Source of the DNA: Planctomycetota bacterium
GTDB lineage: Bacteria; Planctomycetota; Phycisphaerae; Sedimentisphaerales; Anaerobacaceae
Assembly (NCBI GenBank): GCA_020344865.1
Contig: CP070830.1
Span: 2,569,383 to 2,603,135 of the forward strand
Length of the DNA: 33,753 bases
Direction: 5' to 3'
Positions 2,283 through 32,526 of the stretch are shown here, piece by piece. Position 1 is the stretch's first letter. Each line of letters starts with the position of its first letter. The notes beneath the pieces are model-generated. The model did not search any database. It was not told the DNA's origin and was given only the letters and a program-made list of their open reading frames with translations. The position numbers were made by a program, and so were the translations under genes.

Positions 2283-4283
<2,001 letters not shown>

Positions 4284-4528: not shown

Positions 4529-4531
4529 TTT
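4490..4531 (+). repeat. Direct repeat copy 1: tRNA-Asn anticodon loop to 3' end plus 3 nt
   Basis: The 42 nt ttaaccgctaggttgtaggttcgagccctactcggggagttt are identical to 4808-4849. Confidence 0.95.
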
Positions 4532-4811: not shown

Positions 4812-4849
4812 CCGCTAGGTTGTAGGTTCGAGCCCTACTCGGGGAGTTT
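4778..4849 (+). pseudogene. Degenerate partial tRNA-Asn copy: D-arm fragment, an 18-nt divergent segment, then a perfect 42-bp 3' half
   Basis: tggtagagcgag (4778-4789) matches 4472-4483. 4808-4849 is identical to 4490-4531. There is no matching 5' acceptor strand, and the anticodon stem cannot pair (gccgg versus ccgct), so this copy is not a functional tRNA. Confidence 0.75.
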
Positions 4850-4864
4850 CAGGGTTGGCAGGCC

Positions 4865-4897
4865 TTTTTCAGTGATTGCGGCTGAAAAAAGATTTTT
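4865..4897 (+). terminator. Weak AT-rich hairpin plus T-run downstream of the tRNA/GIY-YIG unit
   Basis: TTTTTCAG (4865-4872) pairs with CTGAAAAA (4882-4889) across a 9-nt loop, followed by agattttt. The stem is all weak pairs, so confidence is low. Confidence 0.25.
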
Positions 4898-5001
4898 GTA
4901 TAATCGCGGAATTGAAAGACTTGATTGCACAGCTGGCCTTTAATATGGGAATGGCAGTTTATGTGGAATTAACTCACAGATAAATTCAAGGAAATATTAT
5001 T

Positions 5002-6276: not shown

Positions 6277-6441
6277 TCATTATACGAGATGTAAGTCTAC
6301 AGGTAATCCAATTGTCTTTACAATGACAATCGCCCCAGGACCTTTGTTACTCTAGCTCTGGAAATACCAATATATCTGGCTCGTTCGGATTTAGGGAGAA
6401 TATCGCCGACTGGGACAAACCCTGCTCGGCTGAAATAGGCT

Positions 6442-7692: not shown

Positions 7693-7839
7693 GTAATTCC
7701 TCGCACCCATTTAACTCCGATATATCGGCAATTTTAACCCCACCCTTAACCTTCCTGCACGTCAATAACCGACCTCCTGCAAAAGCAGCCGAAATCTGAT
7801 TACAAAATCCAGCAGGTAAGTTTCCAAGGGCAAAGCCCG

Positions 7840-7857
7840 GAGCCCTACTCGGGGAGT
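7840..7857 (+). repeat. Third, 18-bp copy of the tRNA-Asn 3' end (T-loop/acceptor strand)
   Basis: gagccctactcggggagt is identical to 4512-4529 and 4830-4847. It lies in the intergenic region between the transglutaminase-like gene and the kinase gene. Confidence 0.8.
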
Positions 7858-7882
7858 AGTTCGACGCGGCCACCCTGGCCTT

Positions 7883-7915
7883 GGCCAGTACAAGGTTCAG
7901 ATGGCCGTTTTTTTT
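7883..7915 (+). terminator. Terminator-like hairpin with a T8 tract downstream of the 18-bp tRNA fragment
   Basis: GGCCA (7883-7887) pairs with TGGCC (7902-7906) across a 14-nt loop. An alternative outer stem is CGGCCA/TGGCCG (7867-7872 with 7902-7907). Eight T residues follow at 7908-7915. No plus-strand CDS ends here. Confidence 0.35.
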
Positions 7916-8141
7916 GCCGATATTATGAAAAATTTTCGTAATGGTGGAAAACAGGCCAACTAAATTATAAGTTATTGGTTTTGTAGAGGCCGGTTTTGTG
8001 TAAAATACAGTTTGATATATTAATAGCGGCCACATCGCCAAAAGACAAAATTAAGGGAACAGATGGCGGCTTTGGCGCATCTATAGAGGATTAGACCTAC
8101 ATTTGAGAAGACACCCGAATTATTAGGTTTTTATAAGTAAA

Positions 8142-9020
8142 ATGGCTAAGGACATACTCAACGTCGGCGGGTTTACCATCCAGAGGAGGATTGGCGTCGG
8201 CGCTCGCAGCACAATCTATCTGGCAACGGACGATACAGACCACAACGATATCGCCCTAAAACGGGTTATCTTCGAGAAACCGGAGGATTCGAGGATATTC
8301 GAGCAGGTGGAGACCGAATATAAAGTTGGCAGCCGGATAGACAACCCCTATGTCCGCAAGTGCCATAAACTAAAGAAAATACGCAGTATGCTCAAGGTCA
8401 AGGAGATGCTGCTTTCTATGGAGTATTTCGACGGCAAGAACCTCGAAGACGGTCCCGCCCTCAGCCTGCTGGATGTGCTGCTGGTATTCAGGATGGTGGC
8501 GGGCGGTCTCAATGCCATGCATCAGCACGGGTACGTTCACTGCGACATAAAGCCCAATAATATTCTTCTGAGCACGGCCGGGGCTATTAAAATAATCGAC
8601 CTCGGCCAGAGCTGCAGAATAGGGACGACAAAGCGCCGGATTCAGGGGACGCCGGACTACATCGCACCGGAACAGGTCAGGCGCAAACCCATGGGCCCAA
8701 AAACCGATATCTTCAACCTTGGCGCGACAATGTACTGGGCCCTGACGGGAAAGCACGTCCCCACGTTGATACCCAAAAAGGACAGTCTGGGCCTGCCGCT
8801 GCCACGAAAGCGCCGGGCACCCCACGAGATAAAAAAACAGTTGCCAATCGGAATCTCAAAGTTTGTAATGGACTGCACAGAAGACGAACCTGCGGACCGG
8901 CCGCCCGATATGATGACGGTCATATCGAGGCTGGACCTGCTGATACACAGCATATTAGGTGGCAAGGTAAGAACAAATAACAATGCCGCAAACAATAGTC
9001 GAGTTGCTGAACGAAGGTAA
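8142..9020 (+). CDS. Hanks-type Ser/Thr protein kinase, kinase domain only
   Basis: 292 aa. It has the Gly-rich loop IGVGARSTIY, the conserved Lys in IALK, the catalytic loop HCDIKPNNILL, DLG in place of DFG, and the activation/P+1 motif GTPDYIAPE. There is no TM segment or extra sensor domain. Confidence 0.9.
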   Translation: MAKDILNVGGFTIQRRIGVGARSTIYLATDDTDHNDIALKRVIFEKPEDSRIFEQVETEYKVGSRIDNPYVRKCHKLKKIRSMLKVKEMLLSMEYFDGKNLEDGPALSLLDVLLVFRMVAGGLNAMHQHGYVHCDIKPNNILLSTAGAIKIIDLGQSCRIGTTKRRIQGTPDYIAPEQVRRKPMGPKTDIFNLGATMYWALTGKHVPTLIPKKDSLGLPLPRKRRAPHEIKKQLPIGISKFVMDCTEDEPADRPPDMMTVISRLDLLIHSILGGKVRTNNNAANNSRVAERR

Positions 9021-9831
9021 AGAAGCGAACATCGCTGATAAATTTCGGCGCGGCAACGCGATTTACCTGCCCAGCGGCGTCAACGTGATTGCAACCGGTG
9101 ACATACACGGCCACAGGCGAAACTTCGACAGAATCGTCGCCTATGCGGATTTAGAAAACAATCCCGAAAGACACGTCGTCCTGCAGGAAATCATACACGG
9201 AGGAACGGAGGACGCAGAAGGAGGGTGCCTGTCCTATAAACTACTGTTCGATGTTGTGCGTTACAAACTGAGCTTTGCCGACCGCGTCCACATTATTATG
9301 GGAAATCACGATATCTCATTTATCAACAACAGCGACGTGATGAGAGGCGGCAAGGAAATGAACCGCTCGATGCGTCTTGCCCTCGAGCGGGAATTCGAAC
9401 AAGACGGCAGTGACATCACACTGGCTATAAGCGATTGCTTACGTGCACAACCGCTGGCGGTCAAGTGCGAGAACAAGATATGGCTGAGCCATTCGCTGCC
9501 GGGCGACCGGCTGGCGGATAAATTTGACGGGCGGATTCTGGACAGGCCGCTGGAAGACGACGACATGGTCAAACCGGGCTCGGCTTATCTTCTGACGTGG
9601 GGGAGGAAACACAGTCAGAAAACGCTCGACAAAATGGCAGAGCTGCTTGGTGTAGATATTTTCATTCTGGGCCATCAGGCACAGCCGGAAGGATGGAGCC
9701 GGGCCGGCGAGAATCTTATCATTATCGCCTCCGACCACAACCACGGCTGTCTGTTACCCGTCGACGCGGGGAAATCCTACACTGTAGAGACACTGGCCGA
9801 GTCGATAGTGTCGCTGGCGTCCATATCCTGA
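8983..9831 (+). CDS. Calcineurin-like metallophosphoesterase (PPP/ApaH-like phosphatase)
   Basis: 282 aa with motifs GDIHGH (nt 9097-9114), GNHD (IIMGNHDISF) and a later GH (ILGHQAQP). Its ATG at 8983 overlaps the kinase 3' end by 38 nt. Confidence 0.8.
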   Translation: MPQTIVELLNEGKEANIADKFRRGNAIYLPSGVNVIATGDIHGHRRNFDRIVAYADLENNPERHVVLQEIIHGGTEDAEGGCLSYKLLFDVVRYKLSFADRVHIIMGNHDISFINNSDVMRGGKEMNRSMRLALEREFEQDGSDITLAISDCLRAQPLAVKCENKIWLSHSLPGDRLADKFDGRILDRPLEDDDMVKPGSAYLLTWGRKHSQKTLDKMAELLGVDIFILGHQAQPEGWSRAGENLIIIASDHNHGCLLPVDAGKSYTVETLAESIVSLASIS

Positions 9832-14658: not shown

Positions 14659-17106
14659 CTACTCATAATATGCCTGCTTGCGCCTGTACATCTCCAGCCT
14701 CCGTCCAATTCCAGCCGCCAGTTCCCTTGCCCCTAACAATTGTGCAACTTTCAAAGCCATTTCGGCTGTCCCAACGGCCTCGCCAAATCTTCCTACTCCT
14801 GCATACGCTGCCGCCAAGCTATCAAGTAATTTTGGCTCTTTATAAGCAGTTAGTTTACACCCGCGTTCGGCAATCTCGACAGCCCGAATTGGATCCCGGT
14901 AGCTCGCATCTGCACATGTTGCCAGGAACCAGCTCAGTTTATTAAGGACACTAACATAGTCCGGCTTCAAACGCAGTACCTGCTCCCAATGCTCAATTGC
15001 CCTGTCGAACTGGCCCAGACGACGATACGCTGTCCCCAAGTTACTATGTAACACCAATTCTGCAGGATTAACCTGCACCAACCGCTCCCATTGTTCGATG
15101 GCTTCCCGGAGCTTGCCTTGCTTGGCCAAAGCGTTGGCCAGATTACTCTGCGCCTCAAGATAGTCCGGCTTCAAACTCAGTGCTTCGTTGTAATGTGTAA
15201 CCGCTTCATCAAGCTTATTCATATCCATTAGAATATTGGCCAGACCGTAGTGTACTGTGGGCTGCTCGGGATTTAGCCGAAGTGATTCAGCATAATGCCT
15301 GATCGCCTCATCCTGCCTGCCCTGCTTGCGCAACATATCTGCGAGATATTCATGAACCTCATAACAAGCGGTCCTGTGCTGCTTAACCAAAGGACTATAA
15401 CCAACCTCGTAACAATCGGTCATGTGCTCCAAAGCATTTCTGTAATAGGTGATGGCCTGGTCGATTTTACCACTCTTGGAAAGAGCATTGGCTAACCTCA
15501 CATTTGCTTCAGAATAATTCGGTGCAAGTGTCCATGCCTTCTTATAGTGGAAAATGGCCTCATCGATTCTACCCCCCAAGAATAAAACGTTACCCAAATT
15601 ACCGTGCTCGCTATGCCCGTGCTCTGTCTCAATTTTTGGCGTAAAACTGTTGCAGAAGAGCACCAGCACCATCACTAAAACAGTCCACAACAACGCTCTT
15701 GCTTTGACGCCCTGCTTGACGTAACCAATGAAAGTCTGCAAGGCAAAAGCGGCATAAATAGCAAGTAAAGGTATGGCCAGCAGACGGTAACGCGCGGTCA
15801 CAAAAAAAGCAACAATAAAAATGAACTGTACTGCAATCAAGCCCAACAGCAGTAAATGCTTGCGCCACAATTTAAGACTTAAACATATACCAACAAGCCC
15901 GAAAGGTATAATCAGCCCCGATGGAAACGCAATAATCCTTTTCCACAACAACACGCTCAATACAGTTGAGTATCGCCGAAAGGCATACAGGTTCGCATTG
16001 CGCGGGATCTCCACTCCGTTAAAAAGCTCAAATAGTTTAAGCCCCGTAAGCCTGATAAAATCCCCGGGCTTTTCAAAAATGTGTCGCAGGGTCTGACGAA
16101 CAAAATACCTGCTTTGGCCGAAAGCACTCTCAATGCCCTTCCGGCCGGGCTCATCCATGATGCGATGGAAATACATGAAATGTTCCGGATGATTGATGTT
16201 ATTGACCTCGCGAAGCTCCAAATGGTTACCAAGATAGAAATTGATACCGAGGTTTGTCGCGACAGGTAGAAATCCGGTCGAAGCAAGCTGTTTTAAGCCC
16301 ACTGGCTGCGGTTTTCCATCAACTATCGACCTGTCATACCTGACATTGTGCACAACCACCGGAAAGATAACAAGACCCACCGGTATCAACAGGGCAACGG
16401 CCTTCTTCCAAAACACCGTCCCTTCGGATTTGTCCGCGGGCTGGCTATTCTGACTCTGCGCCATATACATCCAGAATAGAACAACCGGAACAAACAGCAG
16501 GATTGCCCCCCTGTTGATAGCGGATAAGCCAATAACAAGTCCGGCCAAGGCCCACCAGGCTGCATGCCTGCGCCGGGATGCAAAAAGTAACAGCCAGATT
16601 ACCGATAGTCCCAAAAGCACATCAAGGCTGACGGACAGCAACTGACTATCAAAGTAAACAAGCGTCCCGTATAGACAGCATATAATCGCCGCCACAATCG
16701 ATACAAAACGACCGCTAAAGAGGGCCCGCGCAATAAGATAAACAAGCACACAACTTAACGAGCCCAGTGTTAGATGAACGATTTTGAGAAAAGTGATGTT
16801 TTGTCCGGCTGTCTTGTAGAGTATGCCAAGGAACAATGGATAAAGCGGAGGCCAGCTAAAGACCTGTCCATCAGGCCAAGTCCCGTCCACAAAACCAACG
16901 GCCATCGTATGGTACTGCTGTGAATCAATACCGCGGTAGTTATAAAATGGGGAATCTATGTTTTCCGCCAAGAAGGTCAGGCGCACCAACAGAGCGAAAC
17001 AAAAAATGGCAAACGGCACCCACCACAGGCCTCTGGTTGACAACGTACTTTGTCTCGAGTTGCCGGTCAACTTTCTGTTTTCCGTATTCGAACCTAATTT
17101 TGCCAT
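14659..17106 (-). CDS. GT-C fold glycosyltransferase (GT39/GT83, PMT/ArnT-like) fused to a C-terminal TPR array
   Basis: 815 aa. The N-terminal ~490 aa have at least 10 predicted TM helices, with a PMT_2-like first loop (SPFYNYRGIDSQQYHTMA...WPPLYPLFLG). The C-terminal ~320 aa form about 8 TPR repeats (for example AIEHWEQVLRLKPDY and AVTHYNEALSLKPDYLEA). Confidence 0.8.
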   Translation of the reverse strand: MAKLGSNTENRKLTGNSRQSTLSTRGLWWVPFAIFCFALLVRLTFLAENIDSPFYNYRGIDSQQYHTMAVGFVDGTWPDGQVFSWPPLYPLFLGILYKTAGQNITFLKIVHLTLGSLSCVLVYLIARALFSGRFVSIVAAIICCLYGTLVYFDSQLLSVSLDVLLGLSVIWLLLFASRRRHAAWWALAGLVIGLSAINRGAILLFVPVVLFWMYMAQSQNSQPADKSEGTVFWKKAVALLIPVGLVIFPVVVHNVRYDRSIVDGKPQPVGLKQLASTGFLPVATNLGINFYLGNHLELREVNNINHPEHFMYFHRIMDEPGRKGIESAFGQSRYFVRQTLRHIFEKPGDFIRLTGLKLFELFNGVEIPRNANLYAFRRYSTVLSVLLWKRIIAFPSGLIIPFGLVGICLSLKLWRKHLLLLGLIAVQFIFIVAFFVTARYRLLAIPLLAIYAAFALQTFIGYVKQGVKARALLWTVLVMVLVLFCNSFTPKIETEHGHSEHGNLGNVLFLGGRIDEAIFHYKKAWTLAPNYSEANVRLANALSKSGKIDQAITYYRNALEHMTDCYEVGYSPLVKQHRTACYEVHEYLADMLRKQGRQDEAIRHYAESLRLNPEQPTVHYGLANILMDMNKLDEAVTHYNEALSLKPDYLEAQSNLANALAKQGKLREAIEQWERLVQVNPAELVLHSNLGTAYRRLGQFDRAIEHWEQVLRLKPDYVSVLNKLSWFLATCADASYRDPIRAVEIAERGCKLTAYKEPKLLDSLAAAYAGVGRFGEAVGTAEMALKVAQLLGARELAAGIGRRLEMYRRKQAYYE

Positions 17107-17232
17107 TTCTTGTTTTTAGGCGAACCTATGCACAGAAAATCGCAAAGAGCGAAAACCTTAATACTCATCGGCGTTGATGGTGTGTCGACTTAAACTTAAG
17201 TCCCCCAACATGGCGTGGTGCGGACGGGGCGG

Positions 17233-19281
17233 TCACTGGCCCTTCTTGCCGCTCTGGGCCAATGCCGCGGCTATGTTGTTTTTGACTTTCGGCTGGTCGG
17301 GCTTGATTTTCAAAGATTCATTCCAATATTTAAGGGCTTCATCGAGTTTGCCCAGTCGGTAAAAGGCGCTGCCCAGTTTGTTAAGAATAAGGTGCGGCTT
17401 TCCGGCATTAAGTTTAAGTGATTCAGTCCAGTGCTCGATGGCCTCATCAAATTTGCCAAGCCGGTAAAAGGCATTGGCGATTCTGACATGTATGTCAAGC
17501 TGATTGCGCTTTAGTCTCAGCGATTCGGCAAAATGTTCGACGGCCCGGTCAAGCCTGCCCTGCTTTGCCATCAGCAGACCAAGATTATTATGCGAAACGA
17601 TCTGGTACGGGTCAATCCGCAGTGATTCGGTGAGCTGTTCAATGGCCCGGCCGTACTCGCCCTGTCTGGCGAAAATCACACTCAAGTTATTGTGCAGGTC
17701 CGACTGATTCGGATTTAGCCTGAGGCTCTCGAGCATGTAGGCCTTTGCATTTTCGTCATCATCCTCTCCGAAGGCAATCTTACCGAGGATGCGATAAATC
17801 TCAGAAGAATTGGGGCGCTGTTCAAGCAATTGCCTGCACAAACTCTTGGCCTCGGAATTCTTCTTTTGGCCAATAAGTTTCTGCACCTGCGTATTCGCAA
17901 GATGGAAGGCAATCAAATCCTTGGGGTCTTCTTTGCTCTGGTCAAACTCGAAGTCCTCGGCCACCGCGCCGCCGATGTAGCCGAGCGATTCGAGGCGCTT
18001 TCTCGTCTGCTCGTCCGAGGCGGCTTTGCTGTCGGCTGCATGCCGACTGACTGTCTGTTCCAAGATTTGTTTTAAGCGGTCCTGCAGGACGCGGGCCCGC
18101 TGAGGCTGCTGTTGTATTAAGTTGTTGGCCTCTTGTGGGTCTTGAATAAGGTCGTACAACTCGGGGCGGGTGGTCTGAATGTATTTGAAGCGGTCGGTAA
18201 CAACACCGAGAAGGGTATTGGCGTTGTATTTCGTGGCGTAAAGGGACTCGGTGTAGATGTATCTGTCATTTTGCGAAAGTGGTCTTCGGGTAAAACAGGC
18301 GGACAGGTCCTGTCCCTGTACGGCCTCGGGCGGTTGAATGCCCAGCAGGCCGCAGACAGTCGGCACAATATCGATTAAGCCAACCAGGCCTTTTATGATT
18401 TTAGCTTTGCGCTGTCCGGGTAGCTTAAAGAGCAAAGGGACTTTGATAGCACTTTGGTAAATGAAATAGCCGTGGTCCTCTTCGCCGTGCTCTCCGAGCA
18501 TCTCACCGTGGTCGCCGGTAATAATAATAAGGGTCGAATCGTAGAGGTTGAGCTCTTTGAGCTTGTCAATGACCCGGCCAATGCAATAATCTGTGTAGGC
18601 GATTTCCCCGGCATACAGGTCATCCGCGAACCTCGAGGCAAAAGGCTCAGGGGGGACGTAATCGGTATGCGGGTCGTAATAATGCAAAAAGAGGAAGAAT
18701 CTTTCGGTCTTGTGTCGGTCGAGCCATTCGATAGCGAAACGGGTGGCTTCGCCGCCTTTTCGCTCAGAAATTGTACCGGCCATGTACGGCCGCTCAAAGC
18801 GGTCGTTAAAGCTGTCAAAGCCCTGGTTTACGCCAAACTGCGAATCGAGAACAAAAGCGCTGATGATGGCTCCGGTGACAAAACCGTAGTCCTTTAGTAT
18901 TTCAGCAATGGTAACGTTGTAATCGCCGAGCCGATATCCAAGGTTGTCATGCATACCGTGATAAGGGGGGATAGTGCCGGTGAGCATGGAGCCGTGGGCG
19001 GGCAGCGTCAAAGGAACGGAAGAGATGACATTCTCAAAGAGAACGCTGCGGGCGGCGACGGCATCTATATTAGGGGTGGTGTCGCGGCGAAAGCCGTAGC
19101 AACCGAGATAGTCGGCCCGGCAGGTGTCGATACTGACAAGGACGATACTGCGAACATCTCCCGGCACAAAACCCGAGCGAAGGAGCAGCCACCCCCCTAC
19201 CGCGACCACCAGCAGCAATGCCAGCGATACCCAGAGCGGCCGCATATTCGCTGCTCCGGACGATTTTAGTCTCTGAACCAT
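17233..19281 (-). CDS. Sulfatase-fold (alkaline phosphatase superfamily) hydrolase/transferase fused to a C-terminal TPR array
   Basis: 682 aa with an N-terminal TM/signal anchor. The sulfatase-family N-terminal metal site is VLVSIDTCRADYLGCYG, and later motifs are LHYYDPHTDY and ITGDHGEMLGEHG. The C-terminal ~230 aa are TPR repeats (AIEHWTESLKLNA, ALKYWNESLKIKPD). Confidence 0.8.
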   Translation of the reverse strand: MVQRLKSSGAANMRPLWVSLALLLVVAVGGWLLLRSGFVPGDVRSIVLVSIDTCRADYLGCYGFRRDTTPNIDAVAARSVLFENVISSVPLTLPAHGSMLTGTIPPYHGMHDNLGYRLGDYNVTIAEILKDYGFVTGAIISAFVLDSQFGVNQGFDSFNDRFERPYMAGTISERKGGEATRFAIEWLDRHKTERFFLFLHYYDPHTDYVPPEPFASRFADDLYAGEIAYTDYCIGRVIDKLKELNLYDSTLIIITGDHGEMLGEHGEEDHGYFIYQSAIKVPLLFKLPGQRKAKIIKGLVGLIDIVPTVCGLLGIQPPEAVQGQDLSACFTRRPLSQNDRYIYTESLYATKYNANTLLGVVTDRFKYIQTTRPELYDLIQDPQEANNLIQQQPQRARVLQDRLKQILEQTVSRHAADSKAASDEQTRKRLESLGYIGGAVAEDFEFDQSKEDPKDLIAFHLANTQVQKLIGQKKNSEAKSLCRQLLEQRPNSSEIYRILGKIAFGEDDDENAKAYMLESLRLNPNQSDLHNNLSVIFARQGEYGRAIEQLTESLRIDPYQIVSHNNLGLLMAKQGRLDRAVEHFAESLRLKRNQLDIHVRIANAFYRLGKFDEAIEHWTESLKLNAGKPHLILNKLGSAFYRLGKLDEALKYWNESLKIKPDQPKVKNNIAAALAQSGKKGQ

Positions 19282-19425: not shown

Positions 19426-21300
19426 TTAATCGGCGGCGGGCAGGTCATCGAGATTTTTTCTGACCTGCTCGGTACAGATGCTGTCAGGATAGAGGCTCAG
19501 AAAGCTGGTGAGGGTATCTCTGGCATCTGCGAGATACTTTTTCTTCTGCTGGAGATTCGAATCGTTCTGCCGGCGCCATAAATGAATCTTCAGTAGCGCC
19601 AGCTCGTACAACGCCTGCATCCCGCCATCGGTATTTTGGAACCGGCCGTGCAGGAGGGCCAGCCTTTCGGCCCGCAGCTGGTCATCGGCAATAAGCTTCG
19701 TCTGAGCCAATAAGATGTTGTCACGTAGGGGGTCGTTGTCCGCAGTCTGCTGGAGCAGTCCTTCAAGGCGCTGGGCGTAATCCGGGGTGTGGGGATTCAT
19801 CATAACAAACTCGGCGAGACGCTTGGCGGAGGCGGGCTTTTCGGTGCGATTTTCCGAGCTTATGAGGGCGCGCAACTGACTTAACTTCCTTTGCAAATCG
19901 GCCAGTTTGAAGGCCGTCATAACGGAATCAACCGGCGGTCGAAACAGGCTGAAAAGAGTTTCGTCCCGGCCGGGTTCTTCATCGAGCAGCTTCAACCGTT
20001 CGGCGAGCCTGCCTTGCGCCTCTGCGAGAAGCTGGTCGGCCTGCTCAAATCTACCCTGCCCGGCCCAATGCCTGGCTATGCGCCATCGCGCCTCCAGAGA
20101 TTCCGGGCTGTCACCGAATTCCCGGTACAGGCGGTACCATATCTCCCGCGAACGTTCGTGAGGGTAATCGCTGGAAAAATGCAGCACCTCTCTGCCACCA
20201 AGCATCTGCGTCTCGGGACTATATTCGCTCAAGAGCGCCTTACAGTATAGGGCCATGGGCATTCGCGGAGTCCTCGACCGGCGGCTTATAAACAGGTCGT
20301 ACTGTTCGAAGAGCCATTGTCTCTTTGCCTGGAACTTGAGCTCGTCGGGCACTATGAACCAGCTCGGCCAGCGGCCGTTACTTAACTGAATCTGGATTTC
20401 CTTCTTCAAAGCCGCACGCAGCGGTATTGGTTCGGTGGGATAAAAGAAACCGGCCAGATATCTCCTGACGGCGACGTTCTCGAGCGTTTCGTCGAGGGCC
20501 TCGGTTATGCTGTGGTCGTGAAACTCTATTATCTGTTCAGGGTTATTCTTGGCGACGTAGAGCTGATAGTCCAGCTCTGCAAAACCAATCTGCGTCTCAA
20601 AGACAACAACAGCCATCACAAGAACGAGGCAGGTAAACGCCCAGACGAGGCCCGGCCGATAGCGGGTAAAATGACCTATGCCAAGGACCAGACCGGCCAC
20701 AGCCAGGCCGACAAGCCACGCGCAAATCCACGGCGTAAAAGAAAATCCCCACTTAACGGGTTCGACTCCCCTGGCACTTCCGAAATACGCCCAATAAAGA
20801 AGCTGCGGGGCGGTGCACAGCGCTATGGCGGCGAATCGGGAGCGAAAGCGCAGCGGCCGGCATGCGGCGGCAACACAGCTTACCAAGAGACATACCGCGA
20901 AGCCCGGGAGGTTGGCCAGGAAAGCGACCGAAAGTATAAAAGGCAGGCTGTAGGCGAAACTCAGAAGCTGTGATATCAGCACCGGAACGATGGCGAGAAT
21001 ACCCATAAGCAGCCCCAGGACAAGAATCTGCCAGGGATACTCGAATATGGTGACACCGCTTAAGACAAACTGGTCCAAATGCCAGAATTCGGCGGAAGTT
21101 ACAGAGCTGAAACTGAACGACCAAAACGACCCGGCAAGTATCTTCGACCAGAAAAGGCAGGTCGTTGCAAAGGCCACAACGGCAAGCAGCCAGCACCTTT
21201 GAACATTCTTATGGCTGTAGTGCAGGGTCGGGCCTACAGCCATAAAAGACTTCGGGACTACCCTGGGTGCCTTTTCGGCCTCTATGTTATCCATAGACAT
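19426..21300 (-). CDS. Polytopic membrane protein with a helical-repeat (TPR-like) C-terminal domain, function unknown
   Basis: About 8 hydrophobic helices occupy the first ~250 aa (for example LLAVVAFATTCLFW, ILVLGLLMGILAIVPVLISQLL, ICAWLVGLAVAGLVLGIG). An alpha-helical soluble region of ~370 aa follows. The start is uncertain: ATG at 21300 (MSMDNIEAEK) is preferred over the TTG at 21345 used by the ORF track. Confidence 0.6.
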   Translation of the reverse strand: MSMDNIEAEKAPRVVPKSFMAVGPTLHYSHKNVQRCWLLAVVAFATTCLFWSKILAGSFWSFSFSSVTSAEFWHLDQFVLSGVTIFEYPWQILVLGLLMGILAIVPVLISQLLSFAYSLPFILSVAFLANLPGFAVCLLVSCVAAACRPLRFRSRFAAIALCTAPQLLYWAYFGSARGVEPVKWGFSFTPWICAWLVGLAVAGLVLGIGHFTRYRPGLVWAFTCLVLVMAVVVFETQIGFAELDYQLYVAKNNPEQIIEFHDHSITEALDETLENVAVRRYLAGFFYPTEPIPLRAALKKEIQIQLSNGRWPSWFIVPDELKFQAKRQWLFEQYDLFISRRSRTPRMPMALYCKALLSEYSPETQMLGGREVLHFSSDYPHERSREIWYRLYREFGDSPESLEARWRIARHWAGQGRFEQADQLLAEAQGRLAERLKLLDEEPGRDETLFSLFRPPVDSVMTAFKLADLQRKLSQLRALISSENRTEKPASAKRLAEFVMMNPHTPDYAQRLEGLLQQTADNDPLRDNILLAQTKLIADDQLRAERLALLHGRFQNTDGGMQALYELALLKIHLWRRQNDSNLQQKKKYLADARDTLTSFLSLYPDSICTEQVRKNLDDLPAAD

Positions 21301-21372
21301 CAATCTCGCATTTCGTTTTGGCGCGTCGCACGATGCCGTCGGCAAAGATGCGCTAAACGAGATGCGAGCTCA

Positions 21373-22990: not shown

Positions 22991-23074
22991 GGAGAAAATT
23001 CGGGAAATGTAAGGCTGGCTGTGGGTAGCCTAAAAGGCGGGGCTTGTAGTCTAGCCGGTAGTGAGGAGTTAAGG

Positions 23075-23944
23075 ATGCGCTGGAGAAAAGGCTTTTCCTT
23101 AGTGGAATTGCTAGTGGTGGTATCGACCATTGCGCTTCTCATGTCAGTACTGTTGCCTGCACTGATGCGGACAAGGCGGCAGGCGCAGAACGTCATCGGC
23201 CAATCCAATTTGAAACAATGGGGCGCCTGTTATTCGATGTATGCCAACGATTGGGAAGGTTCCGCCCCCAGAGGCTGGTGGCAGAACAGTGCGAGCGGTC
23301 TGCAGGTGAAACACACTGATTATTGGATGGAGGCACTGCGGCCATACTACGGCAACGAGCACCATCTGCGCTGCTGCCCAAGGGCCATAAAGCCCGGCTC
23401 CGAATTACGACCAGGATACTATACGGGACAGTTGGGCGCGCTTGTAGGTTGGGGCACATTTCCAGGCGAGCCTGGGAAGCCCTCGAGTTGGTGGCCATCC
23501 GTGACGGCGGGTGATTACGGCAGTTACGGAATGAACGCCTGGATTTGCAACCCACCGGCCGACGCACCAAGGTTTCAGAACCATAATGTAGCTAAGAACA
23601 ACTGGAGGAATTTTATCATCAAAGGCGCATCTCAGATACCTTTGCTTGGTGACGAGCAGTGGATTGATTGCTGGCCGGAGGTAGAAGATCCAGTTCCGCC
23701 ATGTGATGGCGAGCCATGGGGACCTTATGCGAATTATGGCCACATGGTACGCGTATGCCTGAACCGCCACGATGGCTACGCAAACTGGGTTTTTATGGAC
23801 TATTCTGTCAAGTCAGTGGGCCTAAAGGGGTTGTGGAAGCTTAAGTGGCATCGGAACTATGACGTTGACCTGGTACCGCCGGAGGAGGAATTCAACACGG
23901 CCGGTGATGGCTGGATGAGAAAGTTCACAGACGAATTAAAATAA
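23075..23944 (+). CDS. Prepilin-type N-terminal cleavage/methylation domain protein (type II secretion/type IV pilin-like pseudopilin) with an H-X9-DG-like C-terminal motif
   Basis: The start was moved to ATG 23075, which has GAGGAG 7 nt upstream. The N-terminus is MRWRKG|FSLVELLVVVSTIALLMSVLLPAL, a class III signal with G-1, F+1 and E+5. The C-terminal segment is NRHDGYANWVFMDYS, which reads H-X9-DY. Confidence 0.85.
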   Translation: MRWRKGFSLVELLVVVSTIALLMSVLLPALMRTRRQAQNVIGQSNLKQWGACYSMYANDWEGSAPRGWWQNSASGLQVKHTDYWMEALRPYYGNEHHLRCCPRAIKPGSELRPGYYTGQLGALVGWGTFPGEPGKPSSWWPSVTAGDYGSYGMNAWICNPPADAPRFQNHNVAKNNWRNFIIKGASQIPLLGDEQWIDCWPEVEDPVPPCDGEPWGPYANYGHMVRVCLNRHDGYANWVFMDYSVKSVGLKGLWKLKWHRNYDVDLVPPEEEFNTAGDGWMRKFTDELK

Positions 23945-26685: not shown

Positions 26686-28674
26686 TCATCGACCAGGAGG
26701 CCCATAGCCTGGGGGTCCGTAACCAGGAGGACCAAAGCCAGGAGGCCCGTAGCCGGGAGGACCATACCCCGGAGGCCCACCCTCTCCCGGTCTCGGGGCA
26801 CGCCTGTCCAGACCCGACTTGGTGCCCCATTCCCGCAAAGGCTCTTTCGGCTCCTTCTCGGCCCTTTTGATTTCATTGAATTTGCTCAACAACTCTTCGG
26901 ACCAATACCTCGACCTAATAGGCATGCGGTCCATATTCGCCCCATCAAAACTGTAAAGCATATCAAAATAATGCCTGGCTCGTAAATTTTTCCCGCCCGA
27001 CCAGTCGTTCACAGGCATGATGTCCACCATAACTGCTCCGGTAGCATAATCGACCATCTCCGGCACGGTAACTTTTTCTTTCTCCTCCTCATCTGTCATT
27101 TTGTACTCACTTGCGATGCCAATTGCCTCACCCTGCCTGACAGTAAAGTCCTTGGTGTACCAATACCCCAACACGTATCTGCATACCTGCACCGTCACCG
27201 CCTCGGCTGCTTCCTGTATATCCCGCGGGAAGAAGTACAACTTACCCGGAATATCCACGGGTTCCGTTGTATCAGAAAACCCGCTCCACAAAATAGCCTT
27301 GTCTTTCAGCGATTTGTCCTCCTCGTGGAACTGATTCGTACCGGCTATCGGATTATAAACACCCAAGCGCATTCGGTACCGGTAGCTTCTCTCGGGCTCA
27401 ACAGTATCATCATGCGCCCAGAACACCAACGGCTCATCTAACTTCGAAATATCCTTTTTCCTGTTAATTAAAAGTTCATCGAATTTTTTATAAACATCAC
27501 TTGTTGTCTTTAGAGCCTCTTTGGCCTTGTCCAGACGTTCCCTGTCACTGTCGCGATCCTGCTCAACACGCCTTCTTCTGGTAGGCGACCTTCTTCTTGT
27601 GGACATACCGCCCATAGGACCGCCGCCGCCGCCATAACCGGGAGGTCCACCACCACCTCCCCCACCAAACGGGCTGCCTACTCCCAACGTGGGACGCGTT
27701 CTCGATGTCCTGTTGCGTCGTTCCGAGCGTTCTTCTTTTCGCTCTTCCTTTTTTGCAGTCATGGCCTCACGCTTCTCCTGGGCATCTATCTCTCTCTGAT
27801 ACTCCAAATATTCCTTGTGCAACGATGGAGGAAACCATTCTTCTTTTGCAGATGCAATCTGATAACTCTCCGGCTGCAGCAGGTCCGCCTTGACCTGCCA
27901 ATCATCAAACTGTAGCATGCGCACTTTTATCCCTCCCGTCGGCAACTTATCCACATCCTCTATAACCTCAAACATTTTTTTGCAATGGTCAATCTTGGTT
28001 CGAGACACGTTTTCCCAAGTGCCCCAGCTGCCGTCGGCAAGCAACTGTTGTCTTTGCAACTGCACGGCCGCAAAAACCGGGATACCAAGACACGGATCAC
28101 GCCAGTCCTCCTGAACATTCTCACCGGCAAAACTTTCTCGGAATTTCTCGTATAGTCCCGCAACATCGAATTTCGCCTCCACAGTCACAAAATCAAGGTC
28201 ATTTGGCTCGTGCTCCGCCTGGTTATAAGTATTATCCTCGTCAATTTCCTGGGTAGGCACATAAGCCACCGCTCTGATATGCTCAACTTTAATGTCATTA
28301 ACCTCCCCGACAGACGGAATGCGATACTTTCTGTTGGCGATCACGTCCGTCAAGCTATGCCTGGGCTGGGGAATACCGAGGCTAACATCAATATTACTTA
28401 TGGCCGAGTCGAGGCGAGCCTCAAAATCAATAACCTGTGGTTTATATGGCTGCTTCGTCTGAGGCTTACGGCTGAGCTTGTCTTCAAGGACCTTGGTCCG
28501 TTCGACAATATAATTGTCAATATCACCGGAACTGAATTTCTTGCCGTCGTACTCCACGTGAGTGGGACTAAAAAGAACGTAGCTGATAAAAAGCCAGATG
28601 CAAACAAGCCCAAAGACTGCCAAAACTATCTTTTCAACATGCTCTTCGAAAAAGTTGCTGCCTTTTTTTACCAT
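26686..28674 (-). CDS. Membrane-anchored protein of unknown function with internal and C-terminal Gly/Pro/Tyr low-complexity tracts
   Basis: This is a long ORF with uniform coding character. A single N-terminal TM segment is present (IVLAVFGLVCIWLFISYVLF). I recognise no catalytic or family motif. The C-terminus is GGPPGYGPPGYGPPGFGPPGYGPPGYGPPGR. The preferred start is ATG 28674 (MVKKGSNFF); the ORF track uses TTG 28713. Confidence 0.7.
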   Translation of the reverse strand: MVKKGSNFFEEHVEKIVLAVFGLVCIWLFISYVLFSPTHVEYDGKKFSSGDIDNYIVERTKVLEDKLSRKPQTKQPYKPQVIDFEARLDSAISNIDVSLGIPQPRHSLTDVIANRKYRIPSVGEVNDIKVEHIRAVAYVPTQEIDEDNTYNQAEHEPNDLDFVTVEAKFDVAGLYEKFRESFAGENVQEDWRDPCLGIPVFAAVQLQRQQLLADGSWGTWENVSRTKIDHCKKMFEVIEDVDKLPTGGIKVRMLQFDDWQVKADLLQPESYQIASAKEEWFPPSLHKEYLEYQREIDAQEKREAMTAKKEERKEERSERRNRTSRTRPTLGVGSPFGGGGGGGPPGYGGGGGPMGGMSTRRRSPTRRRRVEQDRDSDRERLDKAKEALKTTSDVYKKFDELLINRKKDISKLDEPLVFWAHDDTVEPERSYRYRMRLGVYNPIAGTNQFHEEDKSLKDKAILWSGFSDTTEPVDIPGKLYFFPRDIQEAAEAVTVQVCRYVLGYWYTKDFTVRQGEAIGIASEYKMTDEEEKEKVTVPEMVDYATGAVMVDIMPVNDWSGGKNLRARHYFDMLYSFDGANMDRMPIRSRYWSEELLSKFNEIKRAEKEPKEPLREWGTKSGLDRRAPRPGEGGPPGYGPPGYGPPGFGPPGYGPPGYGPPGR
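26692..26778 (-). repeat. Coding tandem repeat: about 5 x 15 nt encoding (G-Y/F-G-P-P)n at the C-terminus of the 26686-28674 protein
   Basis: Read directly. The units use different synonymous codons for Gly (ggt/ggg/ggc/gga) and Pro (cct/ccg/ccc/cca). Confidence 0.9.
27604..27669 (-). repeat. Coding Gly-rich low-complexity tract (FGGGGGGGPPGYGGGGGPMGGM) inside the 26686-28674 protein
   Basis: Read directly from the translation. It is flanked by Arg/Ser/Thr-rich segments. Confidence 0.85.
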
Positions 28675-28782
28675 TTTAATTTTCCCGTCTTGAATTCTCG
28701 CTGACCAAGACAAATTAAATGACCCTTTGCGTTTGGCGGCCCGTTACCAACCAATACCCATCCATCTCCTTAATTCTTACAC

Positions 28783-30018
28783 CTACTCCGCCGCCGGCTT
28801 TGTGGCCTTCTTAATCGATTCCGGTTTGATTTCATCGTAGCCGTTCTTGTTAAAAATATACTCGCAAACCAGCTCCAATTCCACTACGGCGTCTTCGCCA
28901 TAGCGGTAGAGAAGGTGATTTGGACTTTCCCGATTAATAGCAATAACATCACTCTCCAAAACCGTTATTTGATTACGCTTGAAAATCCGCTCCTGCTCGT
29001 CCCCGAGAAATCCCCTGAACTTATGTTCTTTGGCGCTGCACAGCTGCTGCATAAAAGGTAAAATCGCCTTCGCGCTAATCACAACAGCCACATTAAAATG
29101 CACAATATCAATATCGTCATCCGTAAACCTTCCCGTACAGGGCTCCGCCAACCCCTGCCCAAGCACAAGAACATATTCAGGTCTCCCGCCAGTTGACGCT
29201 GACGTCTTCACAGTAGTGCTGCCCGCAATCCCACCAACGAAACTCACGCCCAAAAGCCTCTTGACCGGTGAGGTAAAAACACTGTTCGAGCCAGAATTCA
29301 GATCGCGTATCGTATAAACAACATCCTCCACGATCCAATAAGCCAACTGCCAATACCAACAGTCATCAATTGCGGTCGCTCTTCCGATGTACTGATACTC
29401 TTCCCAGAATTCGTAGCCGGGCAAATCTCGCGGTGTGGCATAAACAGATGCAGATTCAGCTTTTTCCCGGCAAATAACGTCGGTTATCGCAGTATCAACC
29501 TCGCTCAACCTGCCCGCCAACCCCCTGCCTCCCCTGAGGCTAAAAGCCGGTGAACTCTGCAAATTCCTCTGCAACTCGCTCTCTGAAGGACAATCACGAG
29601 CGTTCATAAGGGTTATCAGCTCCTCGACAGCTCCGCGATAACTCTTGCCGAACTCCTGAAAAATCAACGTAGACGTATCTTTGGGCTCCGGAAATACCTT
29701 ATAACTCAACAACTCTCTTTGAGTACTTTGCTTGGCTAAAAGGGCCGTCTGATTGGCGTCCGCCTCGTAAGCCTTCTGATACTCCTGCTCAATCTGCCAT
29801 TGGTTACGGGCAACAGTACTTTTGCTTAGAGACTCAACCTGCCTGCCCTTTGAAACACTTTCAGTTACTATTCGCTCCCTGAGCTTGCCACTCATTAACC
29901 TGGTAGGTATAAAAACAAGCACGCCTACCACAAATATAATGACCGGCACCAAAAACGCTGAATAATTCTTGAAAAAACTAAGCTTTTTAAAGAAGTTTTT
30001 AAGTCCTGAGATATTCAT
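28783..30018 (-). CDS. Membrane-anchored protein of unknown function, in the position PilO would occupy
   Basis: 411 aa. It has an N-terminal TM segment (YSAFLVPVIIFVVGVLVFI), then a predicted coiled-coil stretch (NQWQIEQEYQKAYEADANQTALLAKQ), then a globular region with no motif I recognise. It lies between, and is co-directional with, the PilMN-like gene and the 26686-28674 gene. Confidence 0.7.
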   Translation of the reverse strand: MNISGLKNFFKKLSFFKNYSAFLVPVIIFVVGVLVFIPTRLMSGKLRERIVTESVSKGRQVESLSKSTVARNQWQIEQEYQKAYEADANQTALLAKQSTQRELLSYKVFPEPKDTSTLIFQEFGKSYRGAVEELITLMNARDCPSESELQRNLQSSPAFSLRGGRGLAGRLSEVDTAITDVICREKAESASVYATPRDLPGYEFWEEYQYIGRATAIDDCWYWQLAYWIVEDVVYTIRDLNSGSNSVFTSPVKRLLGVSFVGGIAGSTTVKTSASTGGRPEYVLVLGQGLAEPCTGRFTDDDIDIVHFNVAVVISAKAILPFMQQLCSAKEHKFRGFLGDEQERIFKRNQITVLESDVIAINRESPNHLLYRYGEDAVVELELVCEYIFNKNGYDEIKPESIKKATKPAAE

Positions 30019-30166
30019 TTCAGCTCAACTGCCTATTCTTGTCTTCGATTGTTTGTTACCAACGCACCGGAACTTTTGCGGCACGCATGCCTTATACCCA
30101 CTCTACTCTTGACGGCCAATTCCGTAAAAAACAACATAGAAAACGCCAACCTCCGAGGCCGCGGCT

Positions 30167-32434
30167 TTAACTATCCGTGGCGGGCTCACTCGTCTTTGGC
30201 GCATCCTTCCAGATAAATTTTACATCCAACCTAAACCAATGGTCATTAGTTTCATAAACAACGTTGCCCGCTCTATCGATTTTCTCTTTTCCGTACTCGT
30301 CCACCTCGGCCATCCTGCTGATAATCTCCTTTGTCATAGGGTCGACCAAGACATCCACGCCCTCATCTCTGCGAACAACTTCTCCGCCTTTTACAGACCT
30401 GACATCACTAAGCCCTATGCCGGGCGGCACGCCGGCTTCCAGGTCCACTTCACTTATTTCCAACTTGAAATGTTGGACCTTGTCCTTTTTGTATAGTTCA
30501 AACGGGCTGTTGCCGTCGACAATTTCGTCAAGATGAAGCAATCGAGTAACGACACCCCATTTACTCGGGTCGTTCTCCACACCAACAGGGTCCATAAGTT
30601 CACCCAAATTCTCATACGGGCTGTAGCCCACTACGGTTACAATAAACCCGGGCTTTTCGCCCTCGTCCTTCGCCGAGTCATCTTCTTCCGCGCCCCTTCT
30701 TGAAGACCTCCTCGAACCGTACCCGCCGCCCATGCCAGGAGGACCGTAACCGGGAGGACCATAACCGGGAGGGCCGCCCATGCCAGGAGGACCATAGCCG
30801 GGAGGACCGTAACCCATAGGACCACCACCAATGCTCTTCTTACTTCTTTTCTTTCTAAGTCCGGCTCTCAGTAAATCGGCGGCGCCAAAATCTGCCTTGG
30901 CAATATCACCCGAAAAGAAAACGGACATATTTGTTATAAAGACCTGTTTGCGCTCTTTGCGGGGGATTTTCAAAACCGCTTCCACATCACCATCTGCAAA
31001 AGCCCCGTAAAGCCCACGCTGTTCAGGATTGTACTTTTCGCTCGGCAAAACCGAGAACAAGGTCTGGTGCAGTAACGGAACCACATCACGATAGCTAAAC
31101 GGCTCAAAGGCTTTTTCTATCGCCGCTTTATAGCCTGAGGCTTTGCTCTCCTCCGCATCGAGTTTGCTAACAGCTTGCCGGGCGGTCCTAACGACATTGT
31201 CAATCTTTTGCCGAACTTGAGCGTTACTAGCGTAACTGACCCTATCAACAAAAAACGTCCTTGCGAAAGCCAGAACCGAAACTAACAACAGCAAGCCGGC
31301 CGCCACGTTGAAATACTTGGCTTTACTCGCCCAAGCCATCGAGCGGGCAATGCTGCGAGGCAGCAGGTTGCTCTCAATCCTTGCCAAACCTAAGCCCTGT
31401 AAAGCAAGACCATAAACAATGCCAAAATCGCTTACGCTCTCATGAAACTTCGCCGTTGAGACACCCGAACCAATCGCGAGCCTCTTAAAAGAATCAGGCC
31501 TTTCGACAGGCATCTGCAGCGTCTGCTGCAAGTATTTGAGCAGACCGCGCATCTTCGTTCCGCCACCCAGCGCAATAATCCTCGACAATTTAGTGTTGGG
31601 ATTGGAACTATTGTAAAAGCCAAGCGACCTCTGGATTTCGGAGGCCAAATCCGTAAATACCGGCCTCATCGCCTGGAACACCTGCCGGGCATACTTGCTC
31701 ATAGGAGCAGTGCGCTTAAGTTTCTCAGCCTTTTCAAAATTCAGCTTAAAGGTATCAGCTATGGCCTTCGTAAAGGCATTGCCCCCCATCGGTATACACC
31801 TTTGCCAGACCGCTGATTTTGTGCAGACGACCAAATCGGTGTTTTCAGCACCAATATCAATAATAACAACAGCTTGACTCTCGGACTGGACCAAATCACC
31901 GCGGTCGTACAACGCGTAATTATACAGGGCCATCGGGGCCATCTGAACATAGCCAACCGTCACATTCTCCCTGCTAAAATGCTCCAGAAGCGAGCTGACC
32001 ACCTCATTCTTAATCGCAAATATACCCACCCTTTTCTCGGGGCTGTCCGCTTCGGTCATCAGCTGCCAGTCCCACTGCACCTCGTTGATATCAAAGGGAA
32101 TCTGTTGAGCGGCCTCAAATCTAACAATTTCGGGTATGCGCTTCTGCTCCACCGGTGGCAGCTTCACAAAGCGTGCAAAACTGTTATGGCTCGGCACAGA
32201 AACTACCACATCAGCCTTGGTTAAATCGTTCTGTTTGGCGAACTGGCGCAAGCTTAATGCAATCAGCTCTTCTCTTTCTGCGGGCTTGATACCACTTCCG
32301 GTAAGAATTTTGCTGTGCTGAATACTGTCGAAGCCGATTACTTGAACAGCATCTCCTACACTGCTCAAATGTAAAGCTTTTAATGCGTTATTTCCTATAT
32401 CTATTGCCCAAACCGAGCCGGATTCCACAGCCAT
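30167..32434 (-). CDS. PilM-PilN-like fusion protein (actin-like ATPase, PilN-type anchor and TM segment, ~370-aa periplasmic extension)
   Basis: 755 aa. The actin/PilM phosphate and adenosine motifs are WAIDIGNNALKA, VVIIDIGAENTDLVV and IIALGGGTKMRGL. A PilN-like SNLLPRS motif follows, then a TM segment (YFNVAAGLLLLVSVLAF). The long C-terminal region contains GGGPMGYGPPGYGPPGMGGPPGYGPPGYGPPGMGGGYG. GAGGG lies 8 nt upstream of the ATG. Confidence 0.8.
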   Translation of the reverse strand: MAVESGSVWAIDIGNNALKALHLSSVGDAVQVIGFDSIQHSKILTGSGIKPAEREELIALSLRQFAKQNDLTKADVVVSVPSHNSFARFVKLPPVEQKRIPEIVRFEAAQQIPFDINEVQWDWQLMTEADSPEKRVGIFAIKNEVVSSLLEHFSRENVTVGYVQMAPMALYNYALYDRGDLVQSESQAVVIIDIGAENTDLVVCTKSAVWQRCIPMGGNAFTKAIADTFKLNFEKAEKLKRTAPMSKYARQVFQAMRPVFTDLASEIQRSLGFYNSSNPNTKLSRIIALGGGTKMRGLLKYLQQTLQMPVERPDSFKRLAIGSGVSTAKFHESVSDFGIVYGLALQGLGLARIESNLLPRSIARSMAWASKAKYFNVAAGLLLLVSVLAFARTFFVDRVSYASNAQVRQKIDNVVRTARQAVSKLDAEESKASGYKAAIEKAFEPFSYRDVVPLLHQTLFSVLPSEKYNPEQRGLYGAFADGDVEAVLKIPRKERKQVFITNMSVFFSGDIAKADFGAADLLRAGLRKKRSKKSIGGGPMGYGPPGYGPPGMGGPPGYGPPGYGPPGMGGGYGSRRSSRRGAEEDDSAKDEGEKPGFIVTVVGYSPYENLGELMDPVGVENDPSKWGVVTRLLHLDEIVDGNSPFELYKKDKVQHFKLEISEVDLEAGVPPGIGLSDVRSVKGGEVVRRDEGVDVLVDPMTKEIISRMAEVDEYGKEKIDRAGNVVYETNDHWFRLDVKFIWKDAPKTSEPATDS
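30716..30829 (-). repeat. Coding tandem repeat encoding GGGPMGYGPPGYGPPGMGGPPGYGPPGYGPPGMGGGYG in the PilMN-like protein
   Basis: Read directly. It has an internal duplication of the GYGPPGYGPPGMGG unit. Confidence 0.9.
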
Positions 32435-32526
32435 AATTAGCCCTCGCCGTTATGCTCAAAACCTGCTTTGAATAATCCTGTAAGTTAGCTTCAACAATAC
32501 CTCATTATACCATATTATATCATATT

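Follow-up and report, generated by a model that had tools for sequence, protein, structure and literature searches.

We analyzed a window of 33,753 nucleotides (nt) from a Planctomycetota bacterium of the Sedimentisphaerales (contig CP070830.1 of assembly GCA_020344865.1, positions 2,569,383 to 2,603,135 of the forward strand; coordinates below are those of the window), concentrating on three adjacent minus-strand genes towards its end, which we call g1, g2 and g3 in their order of reading. The genes are co-directional and code for proteins of 755 amino acids (aa), 411 aa and 662 aa, respectively, with gaps of 148 nt between g1 and g2 and of 108 nt between g2 and g3, so that our scan of open reading frames (ORFs) bore out the layout given in an initial annotation, which a model had made from the letters alone. 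The genes and the region upstream of them are the following.

30167..32434, minus strand: g1, predicted PilM::PilN fusion, 755 aa (ORF; matches to PilM_2, TIGR01175 and Amuc_1101_fam)
28783..30018, minus strand: g2, predicted bitopic protein with an Amuc_1100/PilO-like fold, 411 aa (ORF; AlphaFold2 model and Foldseek search)
26686..28674, minus strand: g3, predicted bitopic protein, 662 aa (ORF; start at ATG 28674 backed by homologues)
32435..32526, no strand assigned: divergent intergenic region of 92 bp between g1 and a MiaB-like gene, likely the operon promoter (sigma-70-like matches)

The longest ORF of g3 (26686-28713) begins with a TTG and would give 675 aa, while the alignment with 65 homologues begins at the ATG at 28674, and the 662 aa used here are counted from there. 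Upstream of g1 lies a divergent gene for a MiaB/MtaB-like (hereafter MiaB-like) radical S-adenosylmethionine/UPF0004 protein, which starts at 32527 on the plus strand and continues past the end of the window at 33753, and downstream of g3 a convergent glycoside hydrolase family 2 (GH2) beta-mannosidase gene ends at 26674, so the unit consists of exactly three genes. Two sigma-70-like matches are found on the minus strand at 32543-32504, a pointer only, as the count of such matches in this region is not above that of shuffled controls. A terminator-like hairpin was also seen in the g1-g2 gap (30147-30161, minus strand), and such sites in the region do not exceed shuffled controls either. A Pfam scan of every ORF of at least 150 aa in the window found no PilB/PilT, PilC, secretin or prepilin peptidase domain, as the initial annotation had stated, and the N_methyl pilin-type motif in one ORF (23021-23944).

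The g1 product can be divided into six parts.

31391..32413, minus strand: residues 8-348, cytoplasmic actin-fold PilM domain (phmmer to 2YCH and 3JC8)
31358..31390, minus strand: residues 349-359 (GLARIESNLLP), PilN-type N-terminal PilM-binding peptide, present in cis (alignment to 5EOU)
31247..31315, minus strand: residues 374-396, single transmembrane (TM) helix (Kyte-Doolittle, 19-residue window, peak 2.15)
30890..31246, minus strand: residues 397-515, coiled-coil stretch and conserved region A, predicted periplasmic (conservation profile)
30650..30889, minus strand: residues 516-595, disordered Gly/Pro/Tyr/Arg-rich insert with PPGYG repeats (15-nt tandem repeat, low conservation)
30170..30649, minus strand: residues 596-755, conserved region B, predicted periplasmic (mean column identity 0.53 in 68 relatives)

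The identity of the first part is clear, with g1 matching both the Pfam model PilM_2 (PF11104) over residues 11-346 (4.9e-39, 134.7 bits against a cut-off of 27) and the NCBIfam PilM model TIGR01175 (157.4 bits, above the threshold of 133). Its closest solved structures by phmmer are the PilM proteins of Thermus thermophilus (2YCH, 2.2e-26) and Myxococcus xanthus (3JC8, 1.1e-23). The claim that g1 starts as a complete PilM with DIG, DIGAENT and GGG motifs is thus borne out by these models and by the motif positions (residues 12, 193 and 290, respectively, followed by SNLLP at 355). The PilM domain has a mean column identity of 76% among 68 g1 relatives, and D12 and G290-G292 are near-invariant in them. 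The aspartate D193 of the DIGAENT phosphate-2 motif (about 31856-31858) is replaced by Asn in 48 of these relatives, which suggests that nucleotide binding is likely and hydrolysis doubtful, and we infer that the family would be a scaffold that binds nucleotides, with no obligate ATPase activity.

Right after the PilM domain, GLARIESNLLP pairs with GMARI--NLLP, the PilN part of PDB 5EOU, an engineered chimera of Pseudomonas PilM with PilN residues 1-12. Four of its residues (N356, L357, L358 and P359) are conserved in 99-100% of the 68 relatives, and the TM helix follows; the same motif and helix had been taken in the initial annotation for the signature of a PilN N-terminus, a reading that the alignment and the conservation uphold. 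As judged from its sequence, g1 is a natural PilM::PilN fusion, made of PilM plus a PilN-type N-terminus and TM helix, in which the peptide normally bound by PilM in trans appears to be hard-wired in cis.

The best NCBIfam match of g1 is the family of the Akkermansia protein Amuc_1101 (NF045709, PilM-like pilus complex protein), with 1.4e-74 and 252.1 bits. This match runs past the TM helix, with g1 residues 37-443 aligned to positions 34-444 of the 608 in the profile. In a BLASTP comparison, g1 and Akkermansia Amuc_1101 are 30% identical over 304 residues (7e-40), and the alignment runs through the NLxP motif. The similarity extends beyond the PilM domain: when the last 400 residues of the 68 relatives were scanned as C-terminal fragments, 25 matched Amuc_1101_fam (best E, 1e-7) and other families recurred in at most 3, and hhalign aligned the g1 C-terminal profile with the C-terminal part of Amuc_1101 over 114 columns spanning the TM helix as well as the coiled coil and a YxD(V/I)(V/I)xxL motif, with a probability of only 14%. 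The insert at residues 516-595 is poorly conserved (column identity of about 0.15-0.3, with many gaps), and the linkers of the relatives are rich in G, E, R and M and 31-84 residues long. Two 15-nt tandem repeats, one in the g1 linker (30738-30814) and one in the tail of g3 (26692-26779), encode PPGYG units; the exact DNA repeat occurs in few relatives, and disordered linkers rich in Gly, Arg, Met and Glu occupy the same positions throughout the family.

The second gene, g2, matched nothing in Pfam, NCBIfam (E ≤ 1) or the PDB by sequence, the Amuc_1100 family models (NF038287 and PF28028) included. Its family is a large one, with 1189 homologous proteins in a word-indexed search (57-76% identical among the best 120) and 549 clusters at 50% identity in an exhaustive search, the listed members reaching down to about 30% identity. 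One homologue of 542 aa (P0266) carries about six tandem copies of an IIDFINxLQxM-type helix, inserted where the PilO-like domain has its core helix. An AlphaFold2 model built from 94 diverse sequences reached a predicted local distance difference test (pLDDT) of 89.2 and a predicted template-modeling score (pTM) of 0.80, compared with a pLDDT of 40 when 12 close homologues were used. In the model, an N-terminal TM/coiled-coil helix leads into a helical region, which is followed by a C-terminal core that carries two disordered loops.

29902..29964, minus strand: g2 residues 19-39, N-terminal TM helix (hydropathy peak 2.76; inside model helix 4-66)
28828..29382, minus strand: g2 residues 213-397, ferredoxin-like core of alpha-beta-beta-alpha-beta-beta order, containing two disordered loops (model secondary structure)

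In a Foldseek search of the model against 350,542 PDB chains, ranks 1 to 10 were all chains of Amuc_1100 from Akkermansia (6LAD, 6LAF and 6KNY), with E values of 9e-4 to 3e-3, probabilities of 0.99-1.0 and target-normalised template-modeling scores of 0.44-0.47. These were followed by PilO, from Pseudomonas aeruginosa (2RJZ; probability 0.99, root mean square deviation [rmsd] 3.6, 92 columns), 5UVR and M. xanthus 3JC8_Oa, and the g2 core superposes on the PilO cores over 92 columns with an rmsd of 2.8-4.0. The match to Amuc_1100 is credible because g2 lies directly downstream of an Amuc_1101-like gene, as Amuc_1100 does, and because 2 of the 94 g2 relatives weakly matched Amuc_1100_fam (best E, 0.023) among the 18,950 NCBIfam models scanned. 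The Amuc_1100 sequence used for comparison was verified against the PDB and is exact over residues 31-317. We consider g2 to be a probable PilO-type bitopic protein sharing the Amuc_1100 fold, on statistics that are modest.

The third gene, g3, has 1045 homologues, 54-76% identical among those listed, and its product shows two conserved domains separated by a linker.

28567..28629, minus strand: g3 residues 16-36, N-terminal TM helix (hydropathy peak 2.74)
27820..28566, minus strand: g3 residues 37-285, conserved domain A (identity 0.45-0.79, no gaps)
27475..27819, minus strand: g3 residues 286-400, charged helix, then a disordered linker rich in Arg, Gly and Glu (low identity, many gaps)
26815..27474, minus strand: g3 residues 401-620, conserved domain B, in which the motif FWAHDDTVEP..SYRYR is near-invariant (conservation 0.55-0.85)
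26689..26814, minus strand: g3 residues 621-662, disordered PPGYG-repeat tail, variable in relatives (15/30/45-nt tandem repeat at 26692-26779)

Across the family the linker measures 82-157 residues and is dominated by R (0.18), G (0.13) and E (0.11), while domain B is, in our own reading, probably beta-rich. Neither g3 nor 66 relatives gave a meaningful sequence match in Pfam, NCBIfam or the PDB, and the PDB profile search returned low-complexity noise only. A search with hhalign among the g1, g2 and g3 families for paralogy of the PilN/PilO type found none. The two downstream proteins had been described as unassignable partners, each with a single N-terminal TM anchor and with no PilO, PilP or PilQ features. 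The anchors are there by hydropathy (residues ~19-39 of g2 and ~16-36 of g3), and the rest of the description holds for g3, which matches no family profile, and fails for g2, given the Amuc_1100/PilO fold found with Foldseek.

To compare genomic contexts, the g2 alignment was scanned against GTDB species, each represented by a single genome. A g2 relative is encoded in at least 256 of these species-level genomes; the best 80 loci were kept, and neighborhoods were read 10 kb to either side of the trio in 81 loci. Nearly all the kept loci come from uncultured organisms labelled Planctomycetota (Phycisphaerae/Sedimentisphaerales, or "Pirellulales" as named by the submitters); a few are labelled "uncultured bacterium" only, and one 2-kb contig is labelled Nitrospirales. 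Order and strand of the trio are constant wherever the DNA suffices, with g1 present in 78, g2 in 81 and g3 in 78 of the 81 loci, g1 always directly upstream of g2 and g3 always directly downstream, so the conservation of gene neighborhood that the initial annotation had asked about is found across planctomycete relatives. Even a locus with a g2 only 31% identical and wholly different flanks (L086) has the full trio (846, 469 and 600 aa). Four of the listed g2 relatives of ~30% identity were inspected, this one and three on short contigs, where g2 is flanked on both sides by co-directional genes. With 1189 homologues of g2, 1045 of g3 and synteny in 81 loci, g1, g2 and g3 are real genes. Named relatives of g2 and g3 are all "hypothetical protein," except for two g3 records named "uncharacterized membrane protein YgcG" by the Joint Genome Institute (JGI).

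This recurrence effectively refutes the idea that the trio is a set of unrelated ORFs lying side by side and that the PilM-TM-extension frame is an artefact of annotation or assembly. The locus of one distant relative (L087) seems to split g1 in two (850-2037 and 3-890), but there a run of unknown bases, a scaffold gap, interrupts the TM helix, and this is not a gene fission. In about 78 independent assemblies, both the fused frame of 700-850 aa and the order g1-g2-g3 are seen again.

When the flanking ORFs were clustered, the sole consistently linked neighbor was the divergent MiaB-like gene (65 of 81 loci), followed by genes for S-adenosylhomocysteine hydrolase (23 loci) and the GH2 mannosidase (18 loci). 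No flagellar, division or other machine genes were adjacent to the trio in the loci clustered. Two recurrent flanking clusters, of 623 aa and 349 aa, were considered as PilB/PilT candidates and rejected, as one has no Pfam match and the other is a GGDEF protein. In the window, a 639-aa ORF (19426-21345, minus strand) with no Pfam match adjoins the S-adenosylhomocysteine hydrolase gene, and the gene of ~623 aa without Pfam match, present in 18 related loci, is probably its homologue.

A PilM/FtsA-like protein in a highly conserved operon with a housekeeping neighborhood could also be imagined to act, together with g2 and g3, in FtsZ-independent division or septal envelope remodelling, since ftsZ is absent from all planctomycetes and ftsA from most (PMC12673574). 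We consider this very unlikely, and it stays the pure speculation as which the initial annotation had offered it. The FtsA-type matches of g1 are weak (Pfam FtsA, 9e-13; TIGR01174, 1.8e-10), with 157 bits for PilM against 40 for FtsA, and g1 carries the PilN peptide. Moreover, no division genes adjoin the trio, and the relatives Amuc_1101 and Amuc_1100 sit in a pilus-like locus of Akkermansia, a genus that has FtsZ.

That locus is the closest described relative of the trio. Its gene order is Amuc_1102 (pilin-like), Amuc_1101 (612 aa), Amuc_1100 (317 aa), Amuc_1099 (337 aa, bitopic) and Amuc_1098 (906 aa, a tetratricopeptide repeat [TPR] protein with a secretin domain), and each of the five has its own NCBIfam family, named "type IV pilus-like." It has been described as a pili-like cluster that encodes abundant proteins of the envelope (PMC5332112), is now named MUL2 and is conserved in the Verrucomicrobiales (PMC13174399), and the MUL genes for pili and periplasmic complexes are required for mucin uptake by Akkermansia (PMC12418764). 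Like g1, Amuc_1101 has a PilM domain to which a TM helix and a periplasmic extension are attached via a degenerate NLxP motif, and the PilM-type gene is followed directly by a bitopic gene with the Amuc_1100 fold and then by a further bitopic gene, as in g1-g2-g3. The likeness has its limits: the last 310 residues of g1 have no match to Amuc_1101, g2 is 94 residues longer than Amuc_1100 and has no sequence-profile similarity to it, g3 is unrelated to Amuc_1099, the periplasmic parts of the trio are much larger, and the trio stays below the cut-offs of the curated Akkermansia families. We found no paper linking Amuc_1100 to planctomycetes in the literature searched. With a described relative that includes a secretin, the initial label of an undescribed envelope system was too strong, and its fallback, a very divergent subcomplex of a type IV pilus or type II secretion system, is better supported by the Amuc_1100/PilO fold of g2, the nearness of g1 to Amuc_1101 and the Akkermansia locus itself.

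The trio can be compared in the same way with the classic alignment complexes. With the PilM-PilN-PilO-PilP complex of type IVa pili (Pseudomonas, Myxococcus and Thermus) it shares a g1 that passes the PilM thresholds and carries the PilN peptide and TM helix, and a g2 that superposes on the PilO cores (2RJZ, 5UVR and 3JC8_Oa). PilM and PilN, however, are separate proteins there and one polypeptide in g1; the periplasmic parts of the trio are two to three times larger, with disordered inserts and no PilN/PilO Pfam match, and neither a PilP lipoprotein nor a downstream pilQ is present. The type II secretion complex GspL-GspM-GspC has the same architecture, as GspL, like g1, has an actin-like domain in the cytoplasm that a TM helix connects to a periplasmic domain, GspM is a PilO-like bitopic partner like g2, and GspC is a third bitopic protein that reaches the secretin, in the position of g3. 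Here the differences are that g1 stays below the cut-offs of the GspL models (Pfam T2SSL, PF05134, 18.2 against 25.5 bits; TIGR01709, 19.3 against 65 bits), its cytoplasmic domain being a full PilM that keeps the nucleotide-binding motifs, and that gspD, gspE, gspF and gspG are not near the trio.

We therefore favor, with a probability of roughly 55%, the interpretation that the trio is the Phycisphaerae form of an inner-membrane alignment module of the type seen in the Planctomycetes-Verrucomicrobia-Chlamydiae (PVC) superphylum, similar to Amuc_1101-Amuc_1100, with its partners encoded elsewhere. In a machine of the type IV filament type, the trio would form the alignment (assembly-platform) scaffold at the inner membrane and in the periplasm, and it would be the planctomycete counterpart of Amuc_1101-Amuc_1100(-Amuc_1099). 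The cytoplasmic PilM domain of g1 would be clamped to its own PilN peptide (ARIxSNLLP), and g1 and g2 would pair as a heterodimer in the manner of PilN-PilO and GspL-GspM, joined at their TM helices, coiled coils and ferredoxin-like cores. The third protein, g3, would extend the scaffold across the periplasm in a PilP- or GspC-like role, and the motor ATPase, platform protein, pilins and secretin of the pilus or secretion machine to which the scaffold would be coupled would be encoded elsewhere in the genome. The periplasmic location of the large C-terminal parts is a prediction, and the positive-inside bias of the TM helices of the trio is weak.

Several results weigh against this alignment-module interpretation. 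For g1, the 252.1 bits scored with NF045709 are far under the equivalog cut-off of 650 (the genuine Amuc_1101 scores 754.9 bits), and we class g1 as a relative rather than a member of the Amuc_1101 family; its periplasmic regions A and B have no Pfam or PDB sequence match, either as a profile or as single sequences, and the PilN Pfam model (PF05137) matched none of the 68 C-terminal fragments. For g2, the link to Amuc_1100 is one of fold only, at a Foldseek E of about 1e-3 and a template-modeling score of about 0.45; hhalign found no match between the g2 families and Amuc_1100, taken as a single sequence or as a family of 14 sequences, and PilO (PF04350) or T2SSM in Pfam was matched by 0 of 94 relatives. 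For g3, none of 66 relatives matched Amuc_1099 (NF042425), PilP, GspC or secretin models in NCBIfam and Pfam, nor did hhalign match g3 to Amuc_1099. The pilin-like Amuc_1102 and the TPR-secretin Amuc_1098 of the Akkermansia locus have no counterpart adjacent to the trio in the window or its relatives, and no secretin, pilin, PilB/PilT or PilC gene adjoins it here, nor does any secretin, pilin, prepilin peptidase, PilB/GspE ATPase or PilC/GspF platform gene lie within 10 kb in the 81 loci. Finally, the conservation of the trio (76% mean column identity in the PilM domain of g1, 60-76% pairwise identity in g2) is high, which is atypical for PilN and PilO proteins. The lack of adjacent pilB, pilC and pilQ had already been remarked on for the window and extends to all 81 related loci; together with the lack of any profile placing g2 or g3 in the PilO, PilP or PilQ families, this sets the trio apart from the ordinary, merely fused, pilus operon that the initial annotation had offered as a refutation of its view.

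A precedent for a different role is given by Helicobacter pylori, which keeps an orphan pilM-pilN-pilO operon and no other pilus genes, and in which PilN and PilO are part of the flagellar motor cage (PMC10823254; bioRxiv 10.1101/2023.04.27.537399). This operon lies beside miaB (PMC10823254, Fig. 1A legend), as the trio lies beside a MiaB-like gene, and the shared neighborhood may be a coincidence. Compared by description only, H. pylori has individual, small proteins (PilO, 179 aa) and lacks the fusion, the third large protein and the disordered inserts. By analogy, the trio could be an orphan scaffold derived from PilMNO and recruited, together with g3, to another envelope structure, such as a cage around the flagellar motor or a Phycisphaerae-specific structure that organises the periplasm. 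This is the main alternative, a tentative one, to which we give well below even odds. It would agree with the trio never lying beside pilus genes in 81 loci, with a housekeeping MiaB-like gene as its sole conserved neighbor (65 loci), with its very strong conservation, and with g3 and the large disordered inserts, which have no counterpart in known alignment complexes. On the other hand, the closest relatives of g1 and g2 are Amuc_1101 and Amuc_1100, whose locus includes a secretin and a pilin-like gene, and genes of flagellar or other machines are not adjacent to the trio either. Planctomycete genomes have a dispersed gene organisation, and the missing pilus neighbors therefore carry little weight.

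In its broader form, this idea would make the trio a pilus-independent, self-contained scaffold derived from PilM-PilN-PilO, which together with g3 and the long Arg/Gly-rich linkers would organise some other envelope process in the FtsZ-less Phycisphaerae. Division-site or periplasm architecture, a flagellar cage and a macromolecule-uptake pit would be candidate processes. We regard this as rather doubtful.

Outside the operon, the window has some other features of note. The G+C content falls to 0.43-0.49 at about 4000-8000, compared with about 0.52-0.57 on either side, and this stretch includes genes for a subtilase (5002-6276) and a transglutaminase-like protein (6442-7710). The gene for a Ser/Thr protein kinase (8142-9020, plus strand) overlaps by 38 nt that for a calcineurin-like phosphoesterase (8983-9831, plus strand). 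Two large fusions lie within 14659-19281 on the minus strand, one of a PMT_2 glycosyltransferase-like domain with TPRs (815 aa) and the other of a sulfatase with TPRs (682 aa).

The link to type IV filament machines gives a structural rationale to the unannotated g2 and g3 families. It ties a planctomycete family to Amuc_1100 and Amuc_1101, components of a medically studied Akkermansia locus, and supports the idea that Amuc_1100 is an alignment protein of the PilO type and that its relatives extend across the PVC superphylum. Pili-mediated uptake of polysaccharides has been proposed for planctomycetes (PMC12673574), and a connection of the trio with such fibre-mediated uptake would be attractive, making the three proteins candidates for the machinery that builds these fibres. 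Should the trio instead be an orphan, it would be a candidate for a recruited pilus scaffold in bacteria without FtsZ, and a truly pilus-independent scaffold would be the second independent exaptation of a pilus alignment complex after the Helicobacter cage. In either case g3 stands out as a conserved envelope protein of 660 aa without recognisable relatives.

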